A stretch of DNA of 64,000 nt from Eledone cirrhosa. Its lineage: Eukaryota. Made by a program: the position numbers and the translations under genes. Below are positions 4,573 through 64,000 of this stretch, one piece after another; the first letter of the stretch is position 1; each line of letters begins with the position of its first letter. The notes under the pieces were generated by a model. The model saw only the letters and a program-made list of their open reading frames with translations. It made no database searches and had not been told where the DNA came from. The stretch is taken from contig OZ024740.1 of assembly GCA_964016885.1 (NCBI GenBank), forward strand, positions 227,230,001 through 227,294,000, in the 5' to 3' direction.

Positions 4573-7500
4573 CAGCATCAACAGCAACAATAACATCAAC
4601 AACAGCAGCAACAATAACATCAACAACAGCAGCAACAATAAAACCATCAGCAGCATCATCATCAATAACATCATCAACAGCAGCATCAATAACACCATCA
4701 ACAGCAGCAATAACATCATCAACAGCATCATCAATAATAACATCCACAGCATCATCAATAACATCAACAGCATCATCAATAACAGCATAAACAGCAGCAA
4801 TAACATCATCAACAGCATCAACAATAACATCATAAACAGCAGCATCAATAACATCGTCAACAGCAGCATCAATAACATCATCAACAGCAGCATCAATAAC
4901 ATCATCAACAGCAGCAACAATAACACCATCAACAGCAGCATCAATAACATCATCAACAACATCATCAATAACATCATCAACAGCAGCATCAATAACATCA
5001 TCAACAGCAACATCAATAACACCATCAACAGCAGCATCAATAACATCATCAACAGCATCATCAATAACATCATCAACAGCAACATCAATACCATCATCAA
5101 CAGCATCATCAATAACATCAACAACAGCATCATCAATAACATCAACAACAGCATCATCAATAACATCATCAACAGCAGCATCAATAACATCATCAACAGC
5201 ATCATCAATAACATCATCAACAGCAGCATCAATAACATCATCAACAGCATCATCAATAACATCATCAACAGCAGCAATAACATCATCAACAGCATCATCA
5301 ATAACATCATCAACAGCAGCATCAATAACATCAACAACAGCAGCATCAATAACATCCTCAACAGCATCATCAATAACATCATCAACAGCAGCATCAATAA
5401 CATCATCAACAGCATCATCAATAACATCATAAACAGCATCATCAATAACATCATCAACAGCAGCATCAATAACATCATAAACAGCAGCAATAATAACATC
5501 ATAAACAACAGCATCATCAATAACATCATCAACAGCAGCATCAATAACATCAACAACAGCAGCATCAATAACATCATCAACAGCAGCAATAATAACATCA
5601 TCAACAGCATCATCAATAACATCATCAACAGCATCATCAATAACAGCATAAACAGCAGCATCAATAACATCATCAACAGCATCATCAATAACATCATAAA
5701 CAGCATCATCAATAACATCATCAACAGCAGCATCAATAACATCATAAACAGCAGCAATAATAACATCATAAACAACAGCATCATCAATAACATCATCAAC
5801 AGCAGCATCAATAACATCAACAACAGCAGCATCAATAACATCATCAACAGCAGCAATAATAACATCATCAACAGCAGCATCAATAACATCATCAACAGCA
5901 TCATCAATAACAGCATAAACAGCAGCATCAATAACATCATCAACAGCAGCATCAATAACATCAAAAACAGCAGCATCAATAACATCATCAACAGCATCAT
6001 CAATAACAGCATAAACAGCAGCATCAATAACATCATCAACAGCAGCATCAATAACATCATCAACAGCAGCAATAACATCGTCAACAGCAGCATCAATAAC
6101 ATCATCAACAGCAGCATCAATAACATCATCAACAGCAGCAATAACATCGTCAACAGCAGCATCAATAACATCATCAACAGCAGCATCAATAACATCATCA
6201 ACAGCATCATCAATAACATCATAAACAGCAGCATCAATAACATCATCAACAGCAGCATCAATAACATCATCAACAGCATCATCAATAACATCATCAACAG
6301 CAGCATCAATAACATCATCAACAGCATCAACAATAACATCATCAACAGCAGCATCAATAACATCATCAACAGCATCATCAATAACATCATCAACAGCATC
6401 ATCAATAACATCATCAACAGCAGCAATAATAACATCATAAACAGCAGCATCAATAACATCATCAACAGCATCATCAATAACATCATCAACAGCAGCATCA
6501 ATAACATCATAAACAGCAGCAATAATAACATCATCAACAGCAGCAATAACATCATCAACAGCAGCATCAATAACATCATGAACAGCATCATCAATAACAT
6601 CATCAACAGCAGCAATAATAACATCATCAACAGCATCATCAATAACATCATCAACAGCAGCATCAATAACATCATCAACAGCAGCATCAATAACATCATA
6701 AACAGCAGCAATAATAACATCATCAACAGCAGCATCAATAACATCATCAACAGCAGCAATAACATCATCAACAGCATCATCAATAACATCATCAACAGCA
6801 GCATCAATAACATCATAAACAGCAGCAATAATAACATCATCAACAGCAGCATCAATAACATCATCAACAGCAGCAATAACATCATCAACAGCATCATCAA
6901 TAACATCATCAACAGCAGCATCAATAACATCATAAACAGCAGCAATAATAACATCATCAACAGCAGCATCAATAACATCATCAACAGCAGCAATAACATC
7001 ACCAACAGCATCATCAATAACATCATCAACAGCATCATCAATAACATCATAAACAGCAGCAATAATAACATCATCAACAGCAGCATCAATAACATCATCA
7101 ACAGCAGCAATAACATCACCAACAGCAGCATCAATAACATCATCAACAGCATCATCAATAACATCATCAACAGCAGCAATAATAACATCATCAACAGCAG
7201 CAGCAATAACATCATCAACAGCAGCATCAATAACATCATAAACAGCAGCAATAATAACATCATCAACAGCAGCATCAATAACATCATCAACAGCAGCAAT
7301 AACATCATCAACAGCATCATCAATAACATCATCAACAGCCGCATCAATAACATCATCAACAGCAGCAATAATAACATCATAACAGCAGCATCAATAACAT
7401 CATCAACAGCATCATCAATAACATCATCAACAGCATCATCAATAACATCATAAACAGCAGCAATAATAACATCATCAACAGCATCATCAATAACATCATC

Positions 7501-9700
7501 AACAGCAGCATCAATAACATCATAAACAGCAGCAATAATAACATCATCAACAGCAGCATCAATAACATCATCAACAGCATCATCAATAACATCATCAACA
7601 GCATCATCAATAACATCATAAACAGCAGCAATAATAACATCATCAACAGCAGCAATAATAACATCATCAACAGCAGCATCAATAACATCATCAACAGCAT
7701 CATCAATAACATCATCAACAGCATCATCAATAACATCATCAACAGCAGCATCAATAACATCAACAACAGCAGCATCAATAACATCATCAACAGCATCATC
7801 AATAACAGCATAAACAGCATCATCAATAACATCATCAACAGCATCATCAATAACATCATCAACAGCATCATCAATAACATCATAAACAGCAGCATCAATA
7901 ACATCATCAACAGCAGCATCAATAACATCATCAACAGCATCATCAATAACATCATCAACAGCAGCAATAATAACATCATCAACAGCATCATCAATAACAT
8001 CATCAACAGCATCATCAATAACATCATCAACAGCATCATCAATAACATCATAAACAGCATCATCAATAACATCATAAACAGCAGCAATAATAACATCATC
8101 AACAGCAGCATCAATAACATCATCAACAGCATCATCAATAACATTATAAACAGCAGCAATAATAACATCATCAACAGCAGCATCAACAACATCATCAATA
8201 ACATCATCAACAGCAGCAATAATAACATCATCAACAGCAGCATCAATAACATCATCAACAGCAGCAATAATAACATCATCAACAGCAGCAATAATAACAT
8301 CATAAACAGCAGCAATAATAACATCATCAACAGCATCATCAATAACATCATAAACAGCAGCAATAATAACATCATCAACAGCAGCATCAATAACATCATC
8401 AACAGCAGCATCAATAACATCATAAACAGCATCATCAATAACATCATAAACAGCAGCAATAATAACATCATCAACAGCAGCATCAATAACATCATCAACA
8501 GCAGCAATAACATCATCAACAGCAGCATCAATAACATCATCAACAGCATCATCAATAACATCATCAACAGCATCATCAATAACATCATCAACAGCATCAA
8601 CAATAACATCAACAACAGCATCATCAATAACATCATCAACAGCATCATCAATAACATCATAAACAGCAGCAATAATAACATCATCAACAGCAGCATCAAT
8701 AACCACATCAACAGCATCATCAATAACATCATCAACAGCATCATCAATAACATCATCAACAGCAGCAATAATAACATCATCAACAGCATCATCAATAACA
8801 TCATAAACAGCAGCATCAATAACATCATAAACAGCAGCAATAATAACATCATCAACAGCAGCATCAATAACATCATCAACAGCATCATCAATAACATCAT
8901 CAACAGCATCATCAATAACATCATCAACAGCAGCAATAATAACATCATCAACAGCATCATCAATAACATCATAAACAGCAGCATCAATAACATCATCAAC
9001 AGCATCATCAATAACATCATCAACAGCATCATCAATAACATCATAAACAGCAGCAATAATAACATCATCAACAGCAGCATCAATAACATCATCAACAGCA
9101 TCATCAATAACATCATCAACAGCATCATCAATAACATCATCAACAGCAGCAATAATAACATCATCAACAGCATCATCAATAACATCATAAACAGCAGCAT
9201 CAATAACATCATCAACAGCATCATCAATAACATCATCAACAGCAGCAATAATAACATTATCAACAGCATCATCAATAACATCATCAACAGCATCATCAAT
9301 AACATCATCAACAGCATCATCAATAACATCATCAACAGCAGCATCAATAACATCATCAACAGCATCATCAATAACATTATAAACAGCAGCAATAATAACA
9401 TCATCAACAGCAGCATCAACAACATCATCAATAACATCATCAACAGCATCATCAATAACATCATAAACAGCAGCATCAATAACATCATTAACAGCAGCAT
9501 CAATAACATCATCAACAGCAGCATCAATAACATCATAAACAGCAGCATCAATAACATCATCAAAAGCAGCATCAATAACATCGTCAACAGCAACATCAAT
9601 AACAGTATAAACAGCATCATCAATAACATCATCAACAGCAGCATCAACAACATCATAAACAGCAGCATCAACAACACCCTCAACAATATCAGCAGCAGCC
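4573..9700. repeat. ~5.1-kb minisatellite of 21-24-bp units (AACAGCAGCATCAATAACATCATC and variants)
   Basis: Directly visible tandem array built from triplet words. Confidence 0.97.
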
Positions 9701-15315: not shown

Positions 15316-16430
15316 ATAATGTTGATAGTGTTGTTGATAATGGCCATAATGTTGGTGATAATGTTGATAGTGTTGTTGATGATGGCCATAATGTTGGTGA
15401 TAATGTTGATAGTGTTGTTGATGATGGCCATAATGTTGGTGATAATGTTGATAGTGTTGTTGATGATGGCCATAATGTTGGTGATAATGTTGATAGTGTT
15501 GTTGATGATGGCCATAATGTTGGTGATAATGTTGATAGTGTTGTTGATGATGGCCATAATGTTGGTGATAATGTTGATAGTGTTGTTGATGATGGCCATA
15601 ATGTTGGTGATAATGTTGATAGTGTTGTTGATGATGGCCATAATGTTGGTGATAATGTTGATAGTGTTGTTGATGATGGCCATAATGTTGGTGATAATGT
15701 TGATAGTGTTGTTGATGATGGCCATAATGTTGGTGATAATGTTGATAGTGTTGTTGATGATGGCCATAATGTTGGTGATAATGTTGATAGTGTTGTTGAT
15801 AATGGCCATAATGTTGGTGATAATGTTGATAGTGTTGCTGATGATGGCCATAATGTTGGTGATAATGTTGATAGTGTTGTTGATGATGGCCATAATGTTG
15901 GCGATAATGTTGATAGTGTTGTTGATAATGGCCATAATGTTGGTGATAATGTTGATAGTGTTGTTGATGATGGCCATAATGTTGGTGATAATGTTGATAG
16001 TGTTGTTGATGATGGCCATAATGTTGGTGATAATGTTGATAGTGTTGCTGATAATGGCCATAATGTTGGTGATAATGTTGATAGTGTTGTTGATGATGGC
16101 CATAATGTTGGTGATAATGTTGATAGTGTTGTTGATGATGGCCATAATGTTGGTGATAATGTTGATAGTGTTGTTGATGATGGCCATAATGTTGGTGATA
16201 ATGTTGATAATGTTGTTGATGATGGCCATAATGTTGGTGATAATGTTGATAGTGTTGTTGATGATGGCCATAATGTTGGTGATAATGTTGATAATGTTGT
16301 TGATGATGGCCATAATGTTGGTGATAATGTTGATAGTGTTGTTGATGATGGCCATAATGTTGGTGATAATGTTGATAATGTTGTTGATGATGGCCATAAT
16401 GTTGGTGATAATGTTGATAGTGTTGCTGAT
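15316..16430. repeat. 42-bp minisatellite, ~26 copies (ATAATGTTGATAGTGTTGTTGATGATGGCCATAATGTTGGTG)
   Basis: Very homogeneous tandem array with a 14-codon period in the ORF track. Confidence 0.97.
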
Positions 16431-17564
16431 GGGTTATAAAAACACAAGGATATTTACTGACAAGTATCCGTATCACATGATACATGACAATAACAACTAC
16501 CACTGCAACTACAATCAATAACAACAACAACTATTGCAGCAGCAATAACAACAACAACTACTGCGACAACAACAACTACCACTGCAACAAGAACAACAAC
16601 AACAACTACTGCAGCAACAATAACAACAACAACAACTACTACTGCAACAGCAATAACTACTACTACTACTACAACTACAATAACAACAACTGCTACAAGT
16701 ACAACAACAATAACAAGTACAACTATTACTGCAACTACAACAACAAGTACAGCAAAAACAACATTCTCTGTTGGTTACATTCACATGAAGAGAGAGAGAG
16801 ATTGGCATATCATTACATTACACCTATTGGATGAAGACATCTTTCAATATCAATTTACCCAACCTTTGTTTTTGTTGTTACTTTCCATTGACACACTGAG
16901 TGTTGTTGTTGTTATTGCTGCTGTTGTTATTATTTTTATCTTGGTTGCTTTTCTTTGTTTTATTTCTATCCAACATCACAGCAATCTTGATAACAACAAC
17001 AACAACAATAATAATTATAAAGAAAAAATATATATAAAAAGAGGAAAAAAAACAAAACCAAAAACAAACCACGTAGGAAATAGATTTCCAATATGCAGGG
17101 TGCCACTTTCCAATAATTGAAACTTCACGTTCTAATATCTGGTTATCCACTTCCAATAATATAGCATTGAGTTAGGGTATCAATTCTAATATTTGATTTA
17201 TCCAATACTGATATTCCAGCATATAACTTGCTCCAGTATTTCAAGATATAGCAAGTCAAGTGTTGTGAGTTAATCCATTTTGTATCCTAATTATTGCTTC
17301 TTTTAGATAAAGGTGAAGAAGCAAAGGGAAAGGAAAGGAAAGGGAAGGAAATAACTTTTAAGAAGCATATAAGGAAATGAAAACAACAAAAAGTTCATAT
17401 ACCTTCTTTGAATAGTTATTACTTTGATGATTTGATCAATAAAAGCCTGTAGCTTATCCTTTGCCCTTATTCTTCATCTCCTCACATTACATTGTTTCTC
17501 CAGCCCTTATTCTTTATTTGCATACCATTAGAAGATTCTCTTGCACACACTCACTCACTCACTA

Positions 17565-53681: not shown

Positions 53682-54550
53682 GGATACTATTTATGGTTAT
53701 GTATATACTAACATTTTTTATAGTTATATATATTTTAAACCCTAAACAGTGAAGGTCAGTAATTTATTACTACCTTATTACCAGTAAGATAAATAGCTCA
53801 ATGTAATAACATCAGTTGTTCTACAGAGTAGTTATATAGAATTCACAAGAATCAAAGCTATGTTCAAAGCATTTATTCATTTACAATTGTTTCATCCAAA
53901 CCTAGGCTTGGAGTCTTCGGAGCATTTTTCAATGTTTGTACACATGATTGACCTCCTTTTCAATGCAAGAGACATACAGATACATATGTATATATTGATG
54001 TACAGTGGAGTGACACATATTATATTATATTATTTCTGTATAGCAATTCAAATTCAAAATCAAAATCAAAATTAAAATTAAAACAAAATTAAAACAAAAT
54101 TAAAATAAATTTGGCAGTTAACATAGTCTTGTTAAAGTCCTTGTATTACATGTAATACCCTGCCACACAATAATCATATATAAATGAGACACACGTGCAT
54201 GCCCCACGTGTAACTAACGCATACAATAACTATTACATCTAACTAACAAACTATCCTCTTGCATTATCTATGTTAACTGCCAAATGTATTTTAATTTTGT
54301 TTTAATTTTGTTTTAATTTTAATTTTGATTTTGATTTTGAATTTGAATTGCTATACAGAAATATAATATAATATATGTCACCCCACTGTACATCAATATA
54401 TACATATGTATCTGTATGTCTCTTGTGTTGGAAAGGAGGTCAATTATGTGTACAAACATTGAAAAATGCTCCGAAGACTCCAAGCCTAGGTTTGGATGAA
54501 ACAATTGTAAGTGAATAAATGCTTTGAACATAGCTTTGATTCTTGTGAAT

Positions 54551-54553
<3 letters not shown>
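53682..54553. mobile_element. Fold-back element P4: ~290-bp inverted arms + one-sided tail; Penelope-like inverted pseudo-LTR
   Basis: Arms at ~53838-54126 and ~54268-54553, confirmed by the mirror ORFs 53860+ and 54531-. Tail at 53682-53837. Confidence 0.85.
54467..54513 (+). ncRNA. Minimal type-I hammerhead ribozyme motif (U4C variant); mirror copy at 53878-53924 (-)
   Basis: TGCT-CCGAAGA-C-TCCAAGCC-TA-GGTTTGGA-T-GAAAC-AATT-GTA-AGTG gives stem II, the GAAA core, a short stem III with a palindromic AATT loop, and a GUA cleavage triplet. Confidence 0.6.
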
Positions 54554-58507: not shown

Positions 58508-59554
58508 ATATATATATTAAAATATTGATTAATACATACATTTATTAAATATATTGTCTGACAAAAGTGTAGGTTAACAAAAGTGCCAAAGATAGTCACT
58601 GTTAGAACCTAAAATCAGTTCTACTAATATTAAATTTAAGAATTTTCATTGTGAGCAGTAACACAATAATTGCAGGGTAAGAAATTGTCTAGACAAGAGT
58701 ATCCACATATGTGTGTTTGTACAATAATATAGGCACAATAACAGACGATCTGAGAGTAAAGTTGTTAGAAGATCGATTCTTACCATCCATATACATAAAT
58801 ACAAGATGGCTGCAACTCGATTTCGAGTAATGCTATCACTTGATACTTAAGCATGAGCATCCCTGATGTGGCTTTTTAGTCCTGATAGGGACTTTCCCAT
58901 GGCCAGCAATGCATGCATCACAATAAATGTCACATATCAAGCGTTGCCTGCGCTTAAAGTTTTTTTGAGTGAGGAAAGGCTTTGCATGGAACCAATCCTA
59001 CTCTCTGAACATCGAATGCATTTGCCCAAAAATAACTGGTCTACATCATTGGATGCAAACAAAGTCACAGGTTTTATATCAGAGTGACTTTCTAGAGAGA
59101 TATCTTAATGGGGGCTAGGAGTCTCTTGCTCCACAAAATATTTACATACATACATATATATCATCATCATCATCATCATCATCAGCGTTTAACGTCCGTG
59201 TTCCACGCTTGCATGGGTTTGGACGGGGGTAGTCCCACTTGAGGCAAGAGTGATTGTCTTGCTCGCATAGGACTGTCTGGCAGGTTTTCTACAGTTGGAT
59301 GCCCTTCCTAACACCAACCACATTTACAGTGTGGGTCTGGGAGGTTTTTACCGTGTTGCCTACACGGCCACATTACAGCGTGGACTGTGTGTTTTTTTGT
59401 CGTGACACCTACACGATCTCATTTGTTTCGGCCTCGATGGCGCGGCACCAACATAACTTTACATAGAACGGGGTGGTGTGGATCGGGTGGGGGTGGTGGG
59501 ACGGGGTGTATTTGTTAGAGATGCCTACTGGCTGGAGTAGGTTTTACTATATAT

Positions 59555-62500
59555 TTAGGTAAGGCGGGTCTTCTCTGTTACTGAGTACCGCCAAAGGTCT
59601 CGGTCCAGTGACATTGTCTTGGAGAGGTGTAAGTGTGTGATGTCGGAGTTTATCAGCTCGTCCCAGGTTTTTCTAGGTCTGCCTATTCCGTGACTACCGT
59701 CTATCTTTATTGCCCTGCACTTTGTTATACAGCTATCGACTTTCATGCGCATCACGTGTCCATACCAACGTAGCCTTCTCTCGAGTAAACAACATCTGAT
59801 CCCTCTTATCTCTAATTTATTCCTTAGTTCGTTTATGCTTTGCCGTTCACGTATATTACTGTTACACATCCAGCGGAGCATGCAAGCTTCGTTCCTCTCT
59901 AGTCTGCGTATATCCTCTGCACACAATGCCCAGGTCTCACTGCCATGCAGCATTGCTGTTCGTATGCAGGCATCGTACAACCTGCCTTTCATTTTTAGTG
60001 AGAACCCTTTAGCAGCTAATAGTGGTATAAGCTCTCTGAACTTTTTCCAACCAGTTCTGACTCTAGCTACAGTACTTTCAGAGCACCCTCCCCCACTGCT
60101 GATTTTATCGCCCAGGTAACGGAAGCTGTCCACTATTTCTATAGAACCCTCTGCGCAATTGAAAGAGCTAGTAGTTTGTGGGCACTTGCTGCTACTTATT
60201 GCACCAGAGCACCGGCCACATGTAAAATCTATGTTCTTAGTTAGCCTACCTGTGATCCCACTACATCTTTTATGCACCCATACTTTGCATTTAGGACATA
60301 AAATGGAGTTTCTACCTACGCCTTTCCTACACGCCGAGCACGACCATTTCCCAGAAGGGACCGCCGCCTTGTTTTCTTTCCTACAAACTAGTACTTTGGT
60401 CTTAGCCAGGTTAATTTTAAGTCCTTTTGACTCTAGGCCGTGCTTCCATGTTTGGAATTTCTTCTCTAGCTCGGCCATTGATTCCGCTATGAGTGTCAGG
60501 TCGTCTGCGTATAGGAGTTCCCATGGGCAGCCTGTCTTGAACTCCTCTGTTATGGCCTGAAGGGCAATAATAAATAGTAGTGGACTGAGAACAGAGCCCT
60601 GATGGACGCCGACTTTTACGCTAAACTCTTCACTATATTCGTTGTTAATTCTAACCTTGCTGACTGTTTCTTTATACATGGCTTGTATAGCCCTCACAAG
60701 CCATTCGTCAACGCCTAGTTTTCTAAGAGCCCACCAGATAATGGAGCGGGGGACTCTGTCGAAGGCTTTCTCCAAGTCGACAAAAGCTAAGTAGAGGGGT
60801 TTACCTTTAGCTAGGTACTTCTCTTGTAGTTGTCGTACTATGAAAAGAGCGTCTGTGGTACTTTTGCCTGACACAAACCCGAACTGCATTTCATCTAGGT
60901 CAATTCTCTCTCTGATTAGCTGCGCTATTACTCTTTCCGTGACCTTCATGACCTGGTCGATTAATTTAATGCCTCTATAGTTACTCCTATCTAGGGCGTC
61001 TCCTTTACCCTTATAACAGTTAACGATGATGCTGCTATGCCAGTCCTTCGGAACAACCCCGTTTTGTACGACTTGGTTAACTATGCGGGTGACCATGGTG
61101 TGTCCCACCGTGCCAGATGCCTTCAGCATCTCAGCAACTATTTCCGAAGGCCCAGCCGCCTTACCAGTCTTCATATCCTTGATTGCCTTACTTATTATAC
61201 TCCCCTCGACTAACACTGCTGGTCCCTCTATTGGGTCGATATGGGGGAGACTGCCTTTCTCCCAATTATTCTCCTCATTTAGAAGCCTTTCATAGTGACA
61301 CTTCCAAGCTACCTTCTTATCAGCGTCGGTGATGGCAAGTGTGCCATCGTCGTTTAGTACACACTTCTCCCCGACAATATCACGGTTTTCCTTGACGCAT
61401 TGCCTAGCAATCCTGAACACCTCACGTTTTTGGTCATCGCGTTGTAGAACATGCTTGAACTTTCTTTCCTCAGCTTCCCTTCTTGCTAAGTACACTTGTC
61501 TCCTAGCTTCCCTCCTGGCCACTTGATAGTCCTCTCTACTTCCCCCATCCCGCCATACTTTCCAAGCCTGCTTTTTGGCCTTAATTGACCCCTCCACCTT
61601 ACTGTTCCACCACCATGTTACTCTCCTCCTGCCTACAGGCCTGCTCCAGCCACAGACCTCGTCTGTCGCCAACAGCAGGTTTGCTTTCAGAAATTCCCAC
61701 TCTCCCTCTATATTGTCCGACTCTAAATGTTCTTCCTTACTGTCGAAAGCATCAAGTAATATGCTTTGAAATTTATTCCTGGCTGTGGGGTCCTTTAACT
61801 TCCATATTTTCCTCCTGAGGATAGTCCTCTTCTGTTGTCGAGTACGTCTCGTCCTGACTATGAGGTCGCTAATTATCAGTCTATGTTGGGAGGTGCATTC
61901 TTCATGGGGGAGGGATTTAGTGTTAACAACAGACACTCTGTCACGTCTTCTGGTAAGGATATAATCTACCTGGCTTGTGTGTTCCCCGGATCTATAGGTG
62001 ATCAGGTGATTGTCACGTTTTTTGAAGTTAGTGTTACAGATAGTTAGGTTATTTGCATCACAGAATTCCAGGATTCTGGAGCCTTCCTCATTTCTAGTAC
62101 CAAACCCATAGCCTCCATGGATTTCGTCGTAGCCGTCACAATGTTGTCCAACGTGACCATTTAGGTCGCCTGCGATAATTATATAGTCACTGTCGGATAT
62201 TTGGGAGGTAGTTAGCATCAGTGTCTCATAGAATCTGTCTTTTATAGTGCCGGGCAGTCCGGATTGGGGTGCGTACGCAGATATTACTGTCACCGTAGTT
62301 CTATTGAGGACAAGTCGTATTTTAATTATTCTGTCGTTCACTCTATTTACGTCTATTATCTTATCTGCCCACTTTTCTGCTACCATGATTCCTACTCCAC
62401 CCAGCCCATCGTCGTTTCCCACCCAGAAAAGCTTATAACAACGTTTTTTACCCTCAATGAACCTAGCAGACCCACCCCTCCACCTGGTCTCTTGAATACA

Positions 62501-62917
62501 ACAAACATCGACCTCCTTACGTTCAAGCATTTCTACAACCTCGTTAGCGCGACCCTTTAGGGTGCCTACATTTATGGTACCAACTCTGAAGTTTTGGATT
62601 GCGTTTGGGGGTTGGGGGCGGTGAGGGGCGGGGGGCGATGGTGTTATGTTAGCCGTCCGCGGTCGAAACAATGAGGAGTGCTCGCATTCTCGTCCAAGGG
62701 GTGAATTTGTCTTTATCTTTGGCATTGTCGCTGAGCGTCCAGATTTTTCTCTCTCACCTCCACTCTCCAGGATTCCGCAGTCCATCCATCCATCATATAT
62801 CGTATATCGAAAGGCAACCAGGCAAGCGATAGTATAGGCCTCTGGTTTCTGATTGGTCCGCGTAATAATACTGGTGATACGTGGGGGCTGTTTTATGATT
62901 GGTCCACGTAATAGCAA
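59555..62917 (-). CDS. RTE-clade LINE polyprotein: APE endonuclease + reverse transcriptase with an internal PHD finger (first in-frame ATGs at 62785 and 62725)
   Basis: Uninterrupted 1120-codon ORF. APE motifs: GTINVGTL, CIQETRW, SAYAPQ, GDLNGHVG, VDYIL, SQH. RT motifs: KAAGPSEI, NYRGIKL, QFGF, FVDLEKAFD, GVHQGSVLSPLLF, LYADD, GLKIN..KTK, FRYLG. RTE-type C-terminus: HGSETW, RRLRWYGHVMR, GRPRKTW. Confidence 0.97.
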   Translation of the reverse strand: MLLRGPIIKQPPRITSIITRTNQKPEAYTIACLVAFRYTIYDGWMDCGILESGGEREKSGRSATMPKIKTNSPLGRECEHSSLFRPRTANITPSPPAPHRPQPPNAIQNFRVGTINVGTLKGRANEVVEMLERKEVDVCCIQETRWRGGSARFIEGKKRCYKLFWVGNDDGLGGVGIMVAEKWADKIIDVNRVNDRIIKIRLVLNRTTVTVISAYAPQSGLPGTIKDRFYETLMLTTSQISDSDYIIIAGDLNGHVGQHCDGYDEIHGGYGFGTRNEEGSRILEFCDANNLTICNTNFKKRDNHLITYRSGEHTSQVDYILTRRRDRVSVVNTKSLPHEECTSQHRLIISDLIVRTRRTRQQKRTILRRKIWKLKDPTARNKFQSILLDAFDSKEEHLESDNIEGEWEFLKANLLLATDEVCGWSRPVGRRRVTWWWNSKVEGSIKAKKQAWKVWRDGGSREDYQVARREARRQVYLARREAEERKFKHVLQRDDQKREVFRIARQCVKENRDIVGEKCVLNDDGTLAITDADKKVAWKCHYERLLNEENNWEKGSLPHIDPIEGPAVLVEGSIISKAIKDMKTGKAAGPSEIVAEMLKASGTVGHTMVTRIVNQVVQNGVVPKDWHSSIIVNCYKGKGDALDRSNYRGIKLIDQVMKVTERVIAQLIRERIDLDEMQFGFVSGKSTTDALFIVRQLQEKYLAKGKPLYLAFVDLEKAFDRVPRSIIWWALRKLGVDEWLVRAIQAMYKETVSKVRINNEYSEEFSVKVGVHQGSVLSPLLFIIALQAITEEFKTGCPWELLYADDLTLIAESMAELEKKFQTWKHGLESKGLKINLAKTKVLVCRKENKAAVPSGKWSCSACRKGVGRNSILCPKCKVWVHKRCSGITGRLTKNIDFTCGRCSGAISSSKCPQTTSSFNCAEGSIEIVDSFRYLGDKISSGGGCSESTVARVRTGWKKFRELIPLLAAKGFSLKMKGRLYDACIRTAMLHGSETWALCAEDIRRLERNEACMLRWMCNSNIRERQSINELRNKLEIRGIRCCLLERRLRWYGHVMRMKVDSCITKCRAIKIDGSHGIGRPRKTWDELINSDITHLHLSKTMSLDRDLWRYSVTEKTRLT
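62843..62913 (-). promoter_or_regulatory. Two direct-repeat CCAAT (NF-Y-like) boxes in the LINE 5' region
   Basis: Minus strand reads TATTACGTGGACCAATCATAAAACAG and TATTACGCGGACCAATCAGAAACCAG, with the CCAAT cores 46 bp apart, upstream of the first ATG. Confidence 0.45.
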
Positions 62918-62944
62918 TGGTGGTGTGTGGGGAGGGGTGTTGGG

Positions 62945-64000
62945 TAGCTAGCAAGAAGGTAATGATTGAGATTTGTCTATGCATTTAACAAGCGATTAAC
63001 AAAAATACAAAATTTGTTCAGTTAAATACGTCCAAAAACCTAAACGTATTTAGCACTTAATAGGAACAGAAAATGTAGTTTGTTTTAGCGATAGAATGGC
63101 TATTTGGACTTGAAATACGAAATGAGAGAGAGAGAGGAGAGAGAGATGAAGTCTGTACCTTATGTTTACATGATTTTCTTTCGGACAGCAGGCAAAGAAA
63201 TGAAATTTGGCGAAGTGAATTCCTATCATATATTTATAGGGAGAGAGAGAGAGAGAGAGAGAGTGCGAGGGTAGGGGGCCACATGATGGCTGTGGGTGTT
63301 AGGCGTTTGACCGCCCCGTGCCTTCGAAGAAGGAAGAAGGAAAGGGTTTTGCTTTTTTGGGGGTTTGAAAATACGTTAGGAATTAAGGTTTGAAAATAGC
63401 TAGCAAGAAGGTAATGATTGAGATTTGTCTATGCATTTAACAAGCGATTAACAAAAATACAAAATTTGTTCAGTTAAATACGTCCAAAAACCTAAACGTA
63501 TTTAGCACTTAATAGGAACAGAAAATGTAGTTTGTTTTAGCGATAGAATGGCTATTTGGACTTGAAATACGAAATGAGAGAGAGAGAGGAGAGAGAGATG
63601 AAGTCTGTACCTTATGTTTACATGATTTTCTTTCGGACAGCAGGCAAAGAAATGAAATTTGGCGAAGTGAATTCCTATCATATATTTATAGGGAGAGAGA
63701 GAGAGAGAGAGAGAGTGCGAGGGTAGGGGGCCACATGATGGCTGTGGGTGTTAGGCGTTTGACCGCCCCGTGCCTTCGAAGAAGGAAGAAGGAAAGGGTT
63801 TTGCTTTTTTGGGGGTTTGAAAATACGTTAGGAATTAAGGTTTGAAAATAGCTAGCAAGAAGGTAATGATTGAGATTTGTCTATGCATTTAACAAGCGAT
63901 TAACAAAAATACAAAATTTGTTCAGTTAAATACGTCCAAAAACCTAAACGTATTTAGCACTTAATAGGAACAGAAAATGTAGTTTGTTTTAGCGATAGAA
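62945..64000. repeat. Tandem array of 452-bp units (62945-63396, 63397-63848, 63849-end partial)
   Basis: TAGCTAGCAAGAAGGTAATG recurs at 62945, 63397 and 63849. Units appear identical, including the (GA)11 and T6G5 run lengths. Confidence 0.96.

Follow-up and report, generated by a model that had tools for sequence, protein, structure and literature searches.

The tandem array of 452-bp units that enters the window, by which we mean the whole 64,000-nucleotide stretch of Eledone cirrhosa DNA analyzed here, was confirmed to form the 5′ end, variable in length, of a single-ORF LINE family that is very young and of the RTE type. The overall model, which we consider probable, is that of a young RTE-type LINE with a variable 5′ array, in which each unit would carry a TATA promoter, units would be lost at the RNA level, and the array would regrow at the DNA level.

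Self-comparison at a lag of 452 nucleotides gave the last mismatch at position 62944 and none from 62945 onward (Table 1). The exact repeat adjoins the leader, as an earlier reading of the sequence alone (the sequence-only reading) had proposed, and extends past the window to a whole array of 6,128 bp, or 13.6 units. The same reading took the units to be identical down to their microsatellites, which held for only the 7 ORF-proximal units and failed farther out, where distal units of 454, 458, and 459 bp vary in microsatellite length and one unit has a deletion of ~25 bp. In the 14th unit, at TATA+30, the array gives way to (TA)n. No TSD is present at ~62945; the element terminates in (TA)n at both outer ends, which obscures any TSD. 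The ORF encodes an AP-type endonuclease, a reverse transcriptase, and a PHD finger (Pfam). Each monomer unit has 13 CpG, and its longest ATG-started frame is 59 amino acids. There are four ATGs per unit, so RNA from a long array should translate poorly, and short transcripts are a possible source of protein in trans. The two CCAAT-type boxes of the leader, which may be NF-Y sites, could serve a second or an antisense promoter. Elsewhere in the window are unrelated minisatellite arrays at 4582-9685 (24-bp units), 15316-16431 (42-bp units), 31656-32846 (units of about 20 to 22 bp), 33235-36156 (degenerate, TG rich), and 37461-38434 (111-bp units), as well as a MITE-like 194-bp inverted repeat at 53838-54553 with arms that are 96% complementary and 328 bp apart.

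Table 1. Features of the array, leader, and LINE, in window coordinates
Feature	Position	Strand	Remarks
Monomer unit -1	62945..63396	(-)	452 bp, 38.7% GC; adjoins leader; exact lag-452 repeat; same junction in family copies
Monomer unit -2	63397..63848	(-)	identical to unit -1; lag-452 repeat
Monomer unit -3, part	63849..64000	(-)	array goes on to G000:C1:227299072
(CT)11 tract	63242..63263	(-)	upstream of TATA box; length differs between loci
TATA-like box, unit -1	63232..63238	(-)	second copy at 63684-63690; older subfamilies have a (TA)n run instead
Initiator-like CCAAATT	63204..63210	(-)	A at 63208 is the predicted start; in unit -2, 63660
Non-repeated leader (tether)	62786..62944	(-)	159 nt; 335 exact genome matches to a leader 24-mer
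CCAAT-type boxes (two) in leader	62896-62905 and 62850-62859	(-)	one retained in sister family
Single intact ORF	59555..62785	(-)	1,076 aa from ATG 62785; 1,056 aa from ATG 62725
3′ UTR	59185..59554	(-)	between ORF and tail
(TGA)8 tail	59161..59184	(-)	runs into (TA)n target

The array belongs to the LINE. When the genome was searched with the monomer, every place scored, the best 26 of 395 candidates, adjoined the same 3.8-kb body at 98.7% identity or more (26/26). A search with the leader, in which 40 of 1,687 candidates were scored, gave 22 new places, and unit DNA lay upstream of the leader in all 20 that were fetched at that step. Exact patterns provided an unranked sample, with 765 matches to a monomer 25-mer, 335 to the leader 24-mer, and none to the reversed controls; places were known for the first 100 matches listed per pattern, which cover contig C1, while 665 monomer matches lie beyond these. 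On that contig, the leader was found downstream at 20 of 20 monomer places, and unit DNA (at least 21 bp) was found upstream of all 75 leader copies. No free monomer satellite occurred at the 26 or the 20 monomer-selected places, the latter drawn from the first 100 listed of the 765 matches. Altogether, the same leader is immediately preceded by unit DNA at 119 of 119 family loci, and full-length copies devoid of monomers, which the sequence-only reading had regarded as contrary to its proposal, were absent from this set. Copy number ranges over these loci from 0.05 to about 31 units. A contig of run X5 (organism B) bridges a diverged leader-monomer junction, indicating a related 5′ end under a second organism label.

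The family is young, and its arrays are mostly short. The ORF is intact in 63 of 97 full-length bodies, many bodies differ by 0 to 3 substitutions, and the copy in the window is 1 substitution from its nearest relative. Insertions favor (TA)n, which hides TSDs: a TA microsatellite was present in 57 of 98 5′ flanks, and elsewhere there were only scattered short TSD matches. Some insertions lie in minisatellites (about 17, 49, and 40 bp) instead of the common (TA)n target, namely, those at L080, L100 to L103, L045, L175, and L177. Flank comparison gave no allelic pair, in that no two of 65 loci shared a site. Unit length is locus specific (429 to 547 bp), and the longest arrays have 20 to 31 units. 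On contig C1, where removal of 3 segmental duplicates from 75 copies left 72, the median array was 515 bp, and 61 of the 72 arrays were shorter than 800 bp, such that most copies keep fewer than 1.7 units. The rate of 5′ ends fell fivefold beyond 800 bp, from 1.81 to 0.36 per kb. Lengths were bimodal, with 7 of 72 arrays reaching at least 2.5 kb when 0.8 was expected under a constant early 5′-end rate. Across the 119 loci, monomers diverge ~3 times faster than synonymous sites and several-fold faster than the 3′ UTR, figures that may be inflated by indel-adjacent alignment. Partial-unit duplications or deletions are common to L081 and L101 and to L053 and L093, and L111 has a 37-bp duplication of the TATA-initiator block.

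By structure, the element fits RTE and not L1. It has a single ORF with an AP-type endonuclease and reverse transcriptase, no ORF1, and a short-repeat 3′ tail of (TGA)n that was present in 26 of 26 copies, all of which are RTE-like traits; the two ORFs and poly(A) tail of L1 are absent. Protein homologs were almost all unnamed and provided no clade label, and the best named one was a nematode hypothetical protein (33%). RTE LINEs typically have a short, non-repetitive 5′ UTR, from which this family departs in having 0.05 to about 31 tandem 5′ units.

The sequence-only reading described a (CT)11 tract, a TATA-like box, and an initiator-like TCATTT in each unit, and all three were located as it had said: CTATAAAT begins on the element (minus) strand at 63239 and 63691, and TCATTT begins at 63203, 35 nt past the first T of the TATA box. 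Textbook spacing puts the start ~30 nt after the TATA T, however, and a better initiator than TCATTT is CCA(+1)AATT, the A of which, at 63208, lies exactly 30 nt after that T. The TATA motif is itself weak evidence of a promoter, because TATA plus initiator at the same spacing occurs 35 times in the window (TATAWAWR occurs 2,143 times) and because older subfamilies have a (TA)n run in its place. Similarly, positions +20 to +39 from TATA are nearly invariant over 62 aligned units, but other unit blocks are equally conserved. The 5′ junctions were more informative in a sister family than in this one. After 28 of 117 junction calls had been left out as ambiguous, rearranged, open, or duplicated, 6 of the 89 usable copies had their junction at +29 to +35 from TATA, including the copy in the window (+30 of unit -14) and L096 (+30 of unit -3). 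The cluster at +25 to +37 had a P value of 0.03, and the densest 7-nt window was not above random (5 versus 5.4).

The sister family (L160 to L209), which served as an independent test, is older, has bodies ~83% identical to those described above, and carries its own tandem monomer of ~375 to 390 bp. No homology between the two monomers was detected (alignment z 1.1 to 1.8), but their layouts match: a C-run, TATA, 26 to 27 nt, and CCA. None of 17 sister copies departs from the common TATA, which stands next to a variable spacer of near-constant length, and the unit is partially duplicated in tandem, rarely beyond 1.6 units. Among 26 junctions, from 30 loci less 3 without a hit and 1 duplicate, 10 fell at +25 to +40 when 1.06 was expected (P = 4e-8), some of them in unit -1 and others in unit -2, and 7 fell at +25 to +37 when 0.86 was expected. 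A further sister variant forms arrays of 2 to 3 units. The pattern count of 16 from that search is no measure of family size, as its gap was too short for most sister copies. We infer the promoter role from this clustering of 5′ ends, a strong effect in the sister family but a marginal one in the family of the window. A TATA-type promoter, with a predicted start about 30 nt downstream, is likely to be present in every unit.

Other signals were considered in the same region. The CCAAT boxes of the leader count against the reading of the units as promoters. No Rfam match at an E value of 5 or lower was found in 62500-64000, a search that divergent HDV-like ribozymes could escape. Motifs resembling a splice donor (~63150-63175) and a splice acceptor (62945-62965, next to the unit end) occur in the two monomers and are better developed in that of the sister family (L160 to L189), but pattern searches gave no precisely spliced copy, and the one match was not a GT-AG junction. 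Splicing between the first unit and the leader is thus unsupported, though possible.

Two kinds of evidence indicate that multi-unit arrays travel on RNA: an inversion resembling twin priming and unit types common to different loci. At L068 (G000:C7:47.575-47.590 Mb), a (TA)n flank is followed by 9.8 inverted units and then 15.2 forward units, and the breakpoints fall at nearly the same monomer phase (~346-350 and 344). Inversion with breakpoints of shared phase is the signature of twin priming. Unit types are continuous across the breakpoint, consistent with a template of ~25 units, and even with later growth of both halves, the RNA must have included at least about 3 units. Moreover, two unit types recur in the same order in arrays C4a and L035, and three exact unit types are common to C8 and L049; overall, the 271 units collapse to 62 types, 7 of which are common to more than one locus.

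These observations bear on whether long arrays matter to the family. The promoter might be confined to the final one or two units or to the leader with its CCAAT boxes, and long arrays might be passive by-products of a general amplification of direct repeats that does not feed back to the family. Consistent with such passivity, arrays are short in most copies and the 5′-end rate drops beyond 800 bp, the sister family rarely exceeds 1.6 units, and amplification also strikes DNA other than monomers, namely, host flank at L086 (below) and a 2.56-kb segment that was amplified five times at G000:C3:83.98-84.00 Mb. (The latter, L214 to L216, comprises one sister monomer plus leader.) Passive arrays would not account, however, for the at least 3 units on one RNA at L068 or for mixed unit types inherited between loci. 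In addition, several arrays of at least 2 units end upstream of a TATA box (e.g., C1432, L035, L049, L069, L088m, and L099) and thus need an RNA that began farther upstream, and a 1.6-unit lineage that did not regrow would presumably lose its promoter in the next round. We therefore regard passive arrays as unlikely and favor units that act as promoters and are carried on RNA.

Expansion by tandem duplication of DNA was observed at one locus and supported statistically at others. L086 (G000:C1:142.897-142.902 Mb) contains three copies of a 1,547-bp repeat, 99.97% identical, each comprising 804 bp of flanking host DNA, the junction of the insertion, and 1.5 units; the copies are joined by 3- to 4-bp microhomology at a new junction that was found only there. 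Because this duplication includes flank, it occurred in the chromosome. Block duplications, in which variants recur at 4- and 8-unit spacing, were found in L070, L076, L088m, and L099 and likewise point to expansion in the chromosome, as does a deficit of mutations. The sum over 20 arrays was 34 distinct substitutions when about 67 were expected from private substitutions in their bodies, and the five longest arrays had 8 when 28 were expected; the oldest array, L107, showed no deficit (13 versus 14.8). Assembly polishing could erase variants and mimic such a deficit. Unequal exchange is the presumed route of expansion. The sequence-only reading had supposed that the array regenerates itself, and regeneration is indeed seen, but it looks like tandem amplification of DNA after insertion, and long arrays are a minority (11 of 72 on C1 reach 800 bp).

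An alternative to duplication in the chromosome is that reverse transcriptase builds most of the array at insertion, by jumping repeatedly from the RNA 5′ end back to one unit downstream. Such reiteration would explain why arrays are homogeneous within loci and distinct between them, given how few of the 62 unit types are shared, and why L076, with about 31 units, has a body free of private substitutions; an expansion model based on priming has also been discussed for mouse L1 (PMC6454616). It cannot, however, produce the flank-containing repeat at L086, and the recurrence of point variants at 4- and 8-unit spacing and the fewer substitutions in arrays than in their bodies both speak against it. 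As the main source of the arrays, reiteration thus appears improbable, and as an added contributor during insertion it is possible; we continue to favor amplification of DNA in the chromosome.

That the array is an independent satellite beside the LINE, or an artefact of assembly, is largely refuted and very improbable: one array (C4a) ends at an assembly gap, and an orphan array could lie beyond the first 100 of the 765 monomer matches, but at all 119 loci the junction to the leader is fixed, the few exceptions being internal deletions or duplications. The leader-monomer junction is also spanned by contigs of runs X4 and X5, and neither collapse nor overexpansion produces locus-specific unit types, block duplications, or an inversion. 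Short-read contigs also cover the unit-unit junction, none with 31 letters on both sides, and were not counted as bridging it.

The promoter array that we favor would renew itself as follows. RNA would start inside one unit and, to judge from the clustering of 5′ ends, leave behind whatever lies upstream in that unit, the TATA box included. Reverse transcription would copy the RNA, several units included, and would usually stop early, such that most daughters have fewer than 1.7 units. A copy with more than one unit would be a direct repeat, which tandem duplication of DNA could lengthen to 6 to 31 homogeneous units, and the regrown multi-unit copies would presumably be the next source elements. 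In this way, an upstream promoter that is otherwise not heritable would be made heritable by tandem repetition. More tentatively, and with slightly more doubt than belief, we propose that an RTE-type lineage independently evolved a self-renewing tandem TATA promoter and kept the architecture while swapping the sequence of the unit, as the two non-alignable monomers with the same TATA/+30 layout would suggest. Such a lineage would survive only through host tandem amplification that periodically rebuilds multi-unit masters, which would be transcribed and then reverse transcribed, as RNAs of up to ~15 kb, and would seed arrays the size of satellites.

A LINE with an upstream-type promoter should lose that promoter at each jump, a problem that mouse L1 solves with tandem monomers. 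In the present family there are hundreds of near-identical copies, and their units are long and resolvable enough that loss of units by retrotransposition is separable from regrowth in DNA. If the model is true, it would be a convergent case of a tandem promoter outside the L1 clade and a traceable route from promoter to satellite. It would also be a warning that repeat annotation based on consensus sequences misses such 5′ ends.

The closest likeness is to rodent L1. Mouse L1 has a variable number of ~200-bp monomers, a tether, additive activity, and 5′ ends clustered near YY1, and its daughters are shorter by 0.6 to 1.8 monomers (PMC10620060), and a survey of vertebrates lists mouse and rat as having tandem 5′ monomers (PMC5381506). 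The mouse L1Md A, Gf, and Tf families (~200 bp) and rat L1 (~650 bp) share with the element here the order of variable tandem units, non-repeated tether, and ORF (PMC6454616, PMC10620060, PMC5381506). The parallel to mouse L1 monomers, first drawn by the sequence-only reading, extends to all 119 loci, each with variable tandem units plus tether at the 5′ end. Alike are the loss of units by daughters, the rare very long arrays (50 in mouse), and the fast turnover of 5′ ends between families; clustering of 5′ ends at one unit phase may be a further likeness, being marginal here (6/89) and clear in the sister family (10/26). How mouse monomers regrow is called unclear in a study that mentions proposals of both second-strand priming and unequal crossing-over and says that the latter lacks quantitative support (PMC6454616). 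The differences are as marked. In contrast to L1, with its two ORFs and poly(A), the element here has a single ORF, a (TGA)n tail, and (TA)n targets, and its AT-rich units of 450 to 550 bp have a TATA-like box, unlike the GC-rich CpG-island units with YY1. The unit printed here has only a one-mismatch look-alike of the YY1 core, GCCATCTT, which is absent from older variants. Also unlike mouse L1, arrays of at least 2.5 kb are found at roughly one tenth of the leader-bearing copies on C1. We conclude that the 5′ end probably works like the mouse L1 monomer promoter, as judged from sequence, but that the element is not an L1.

Nearer in class is RTE-2_OV of Octopus vulgaris, which resembles the element in having one ORF of ~1,100 amino acids with an endonuclease, a reverse transcriptase, and a zinc finger and in its microsatellite 3′ end (PMC9115989, PMC6007223); microsatellite tails are reported for RTE elements in the latter source (PMC6007223). 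The description of RTE-2_OV is based on a transcript whose UTRs are ~600 nt long; microsatellite makes up most of its 3′ UTR, in contrast to that of the element here (PMC9115989). Neither "tandem" nor "monomer" appears in the main text of that paper (PMC9115989), and the passages covered of an octopus repeat annotation of 2026 mention no such arrays (PMC13282606). Searches of the openly accessible literature listed no account of 5′ tandem promoter units in RTE elements. More distantly, the A-modules of Dictyostelium TRE5-A reportedly occur in tandem; TRE5-A differs in having two ORFs and in targeting tRNA genes. The A-module is like the units here in being a 5′ module, of 200 bp, with promoter activity in a non-LTR element (PMC3159450). 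In Drosophila HeT-A and in the U3 region of retroviral LTRs, an upstream promoter is kept heritable by a redundant copy; there, the spare promoter lies at the 3′ end or in the neighboring element, and here it would lie in the next 5′ unit.
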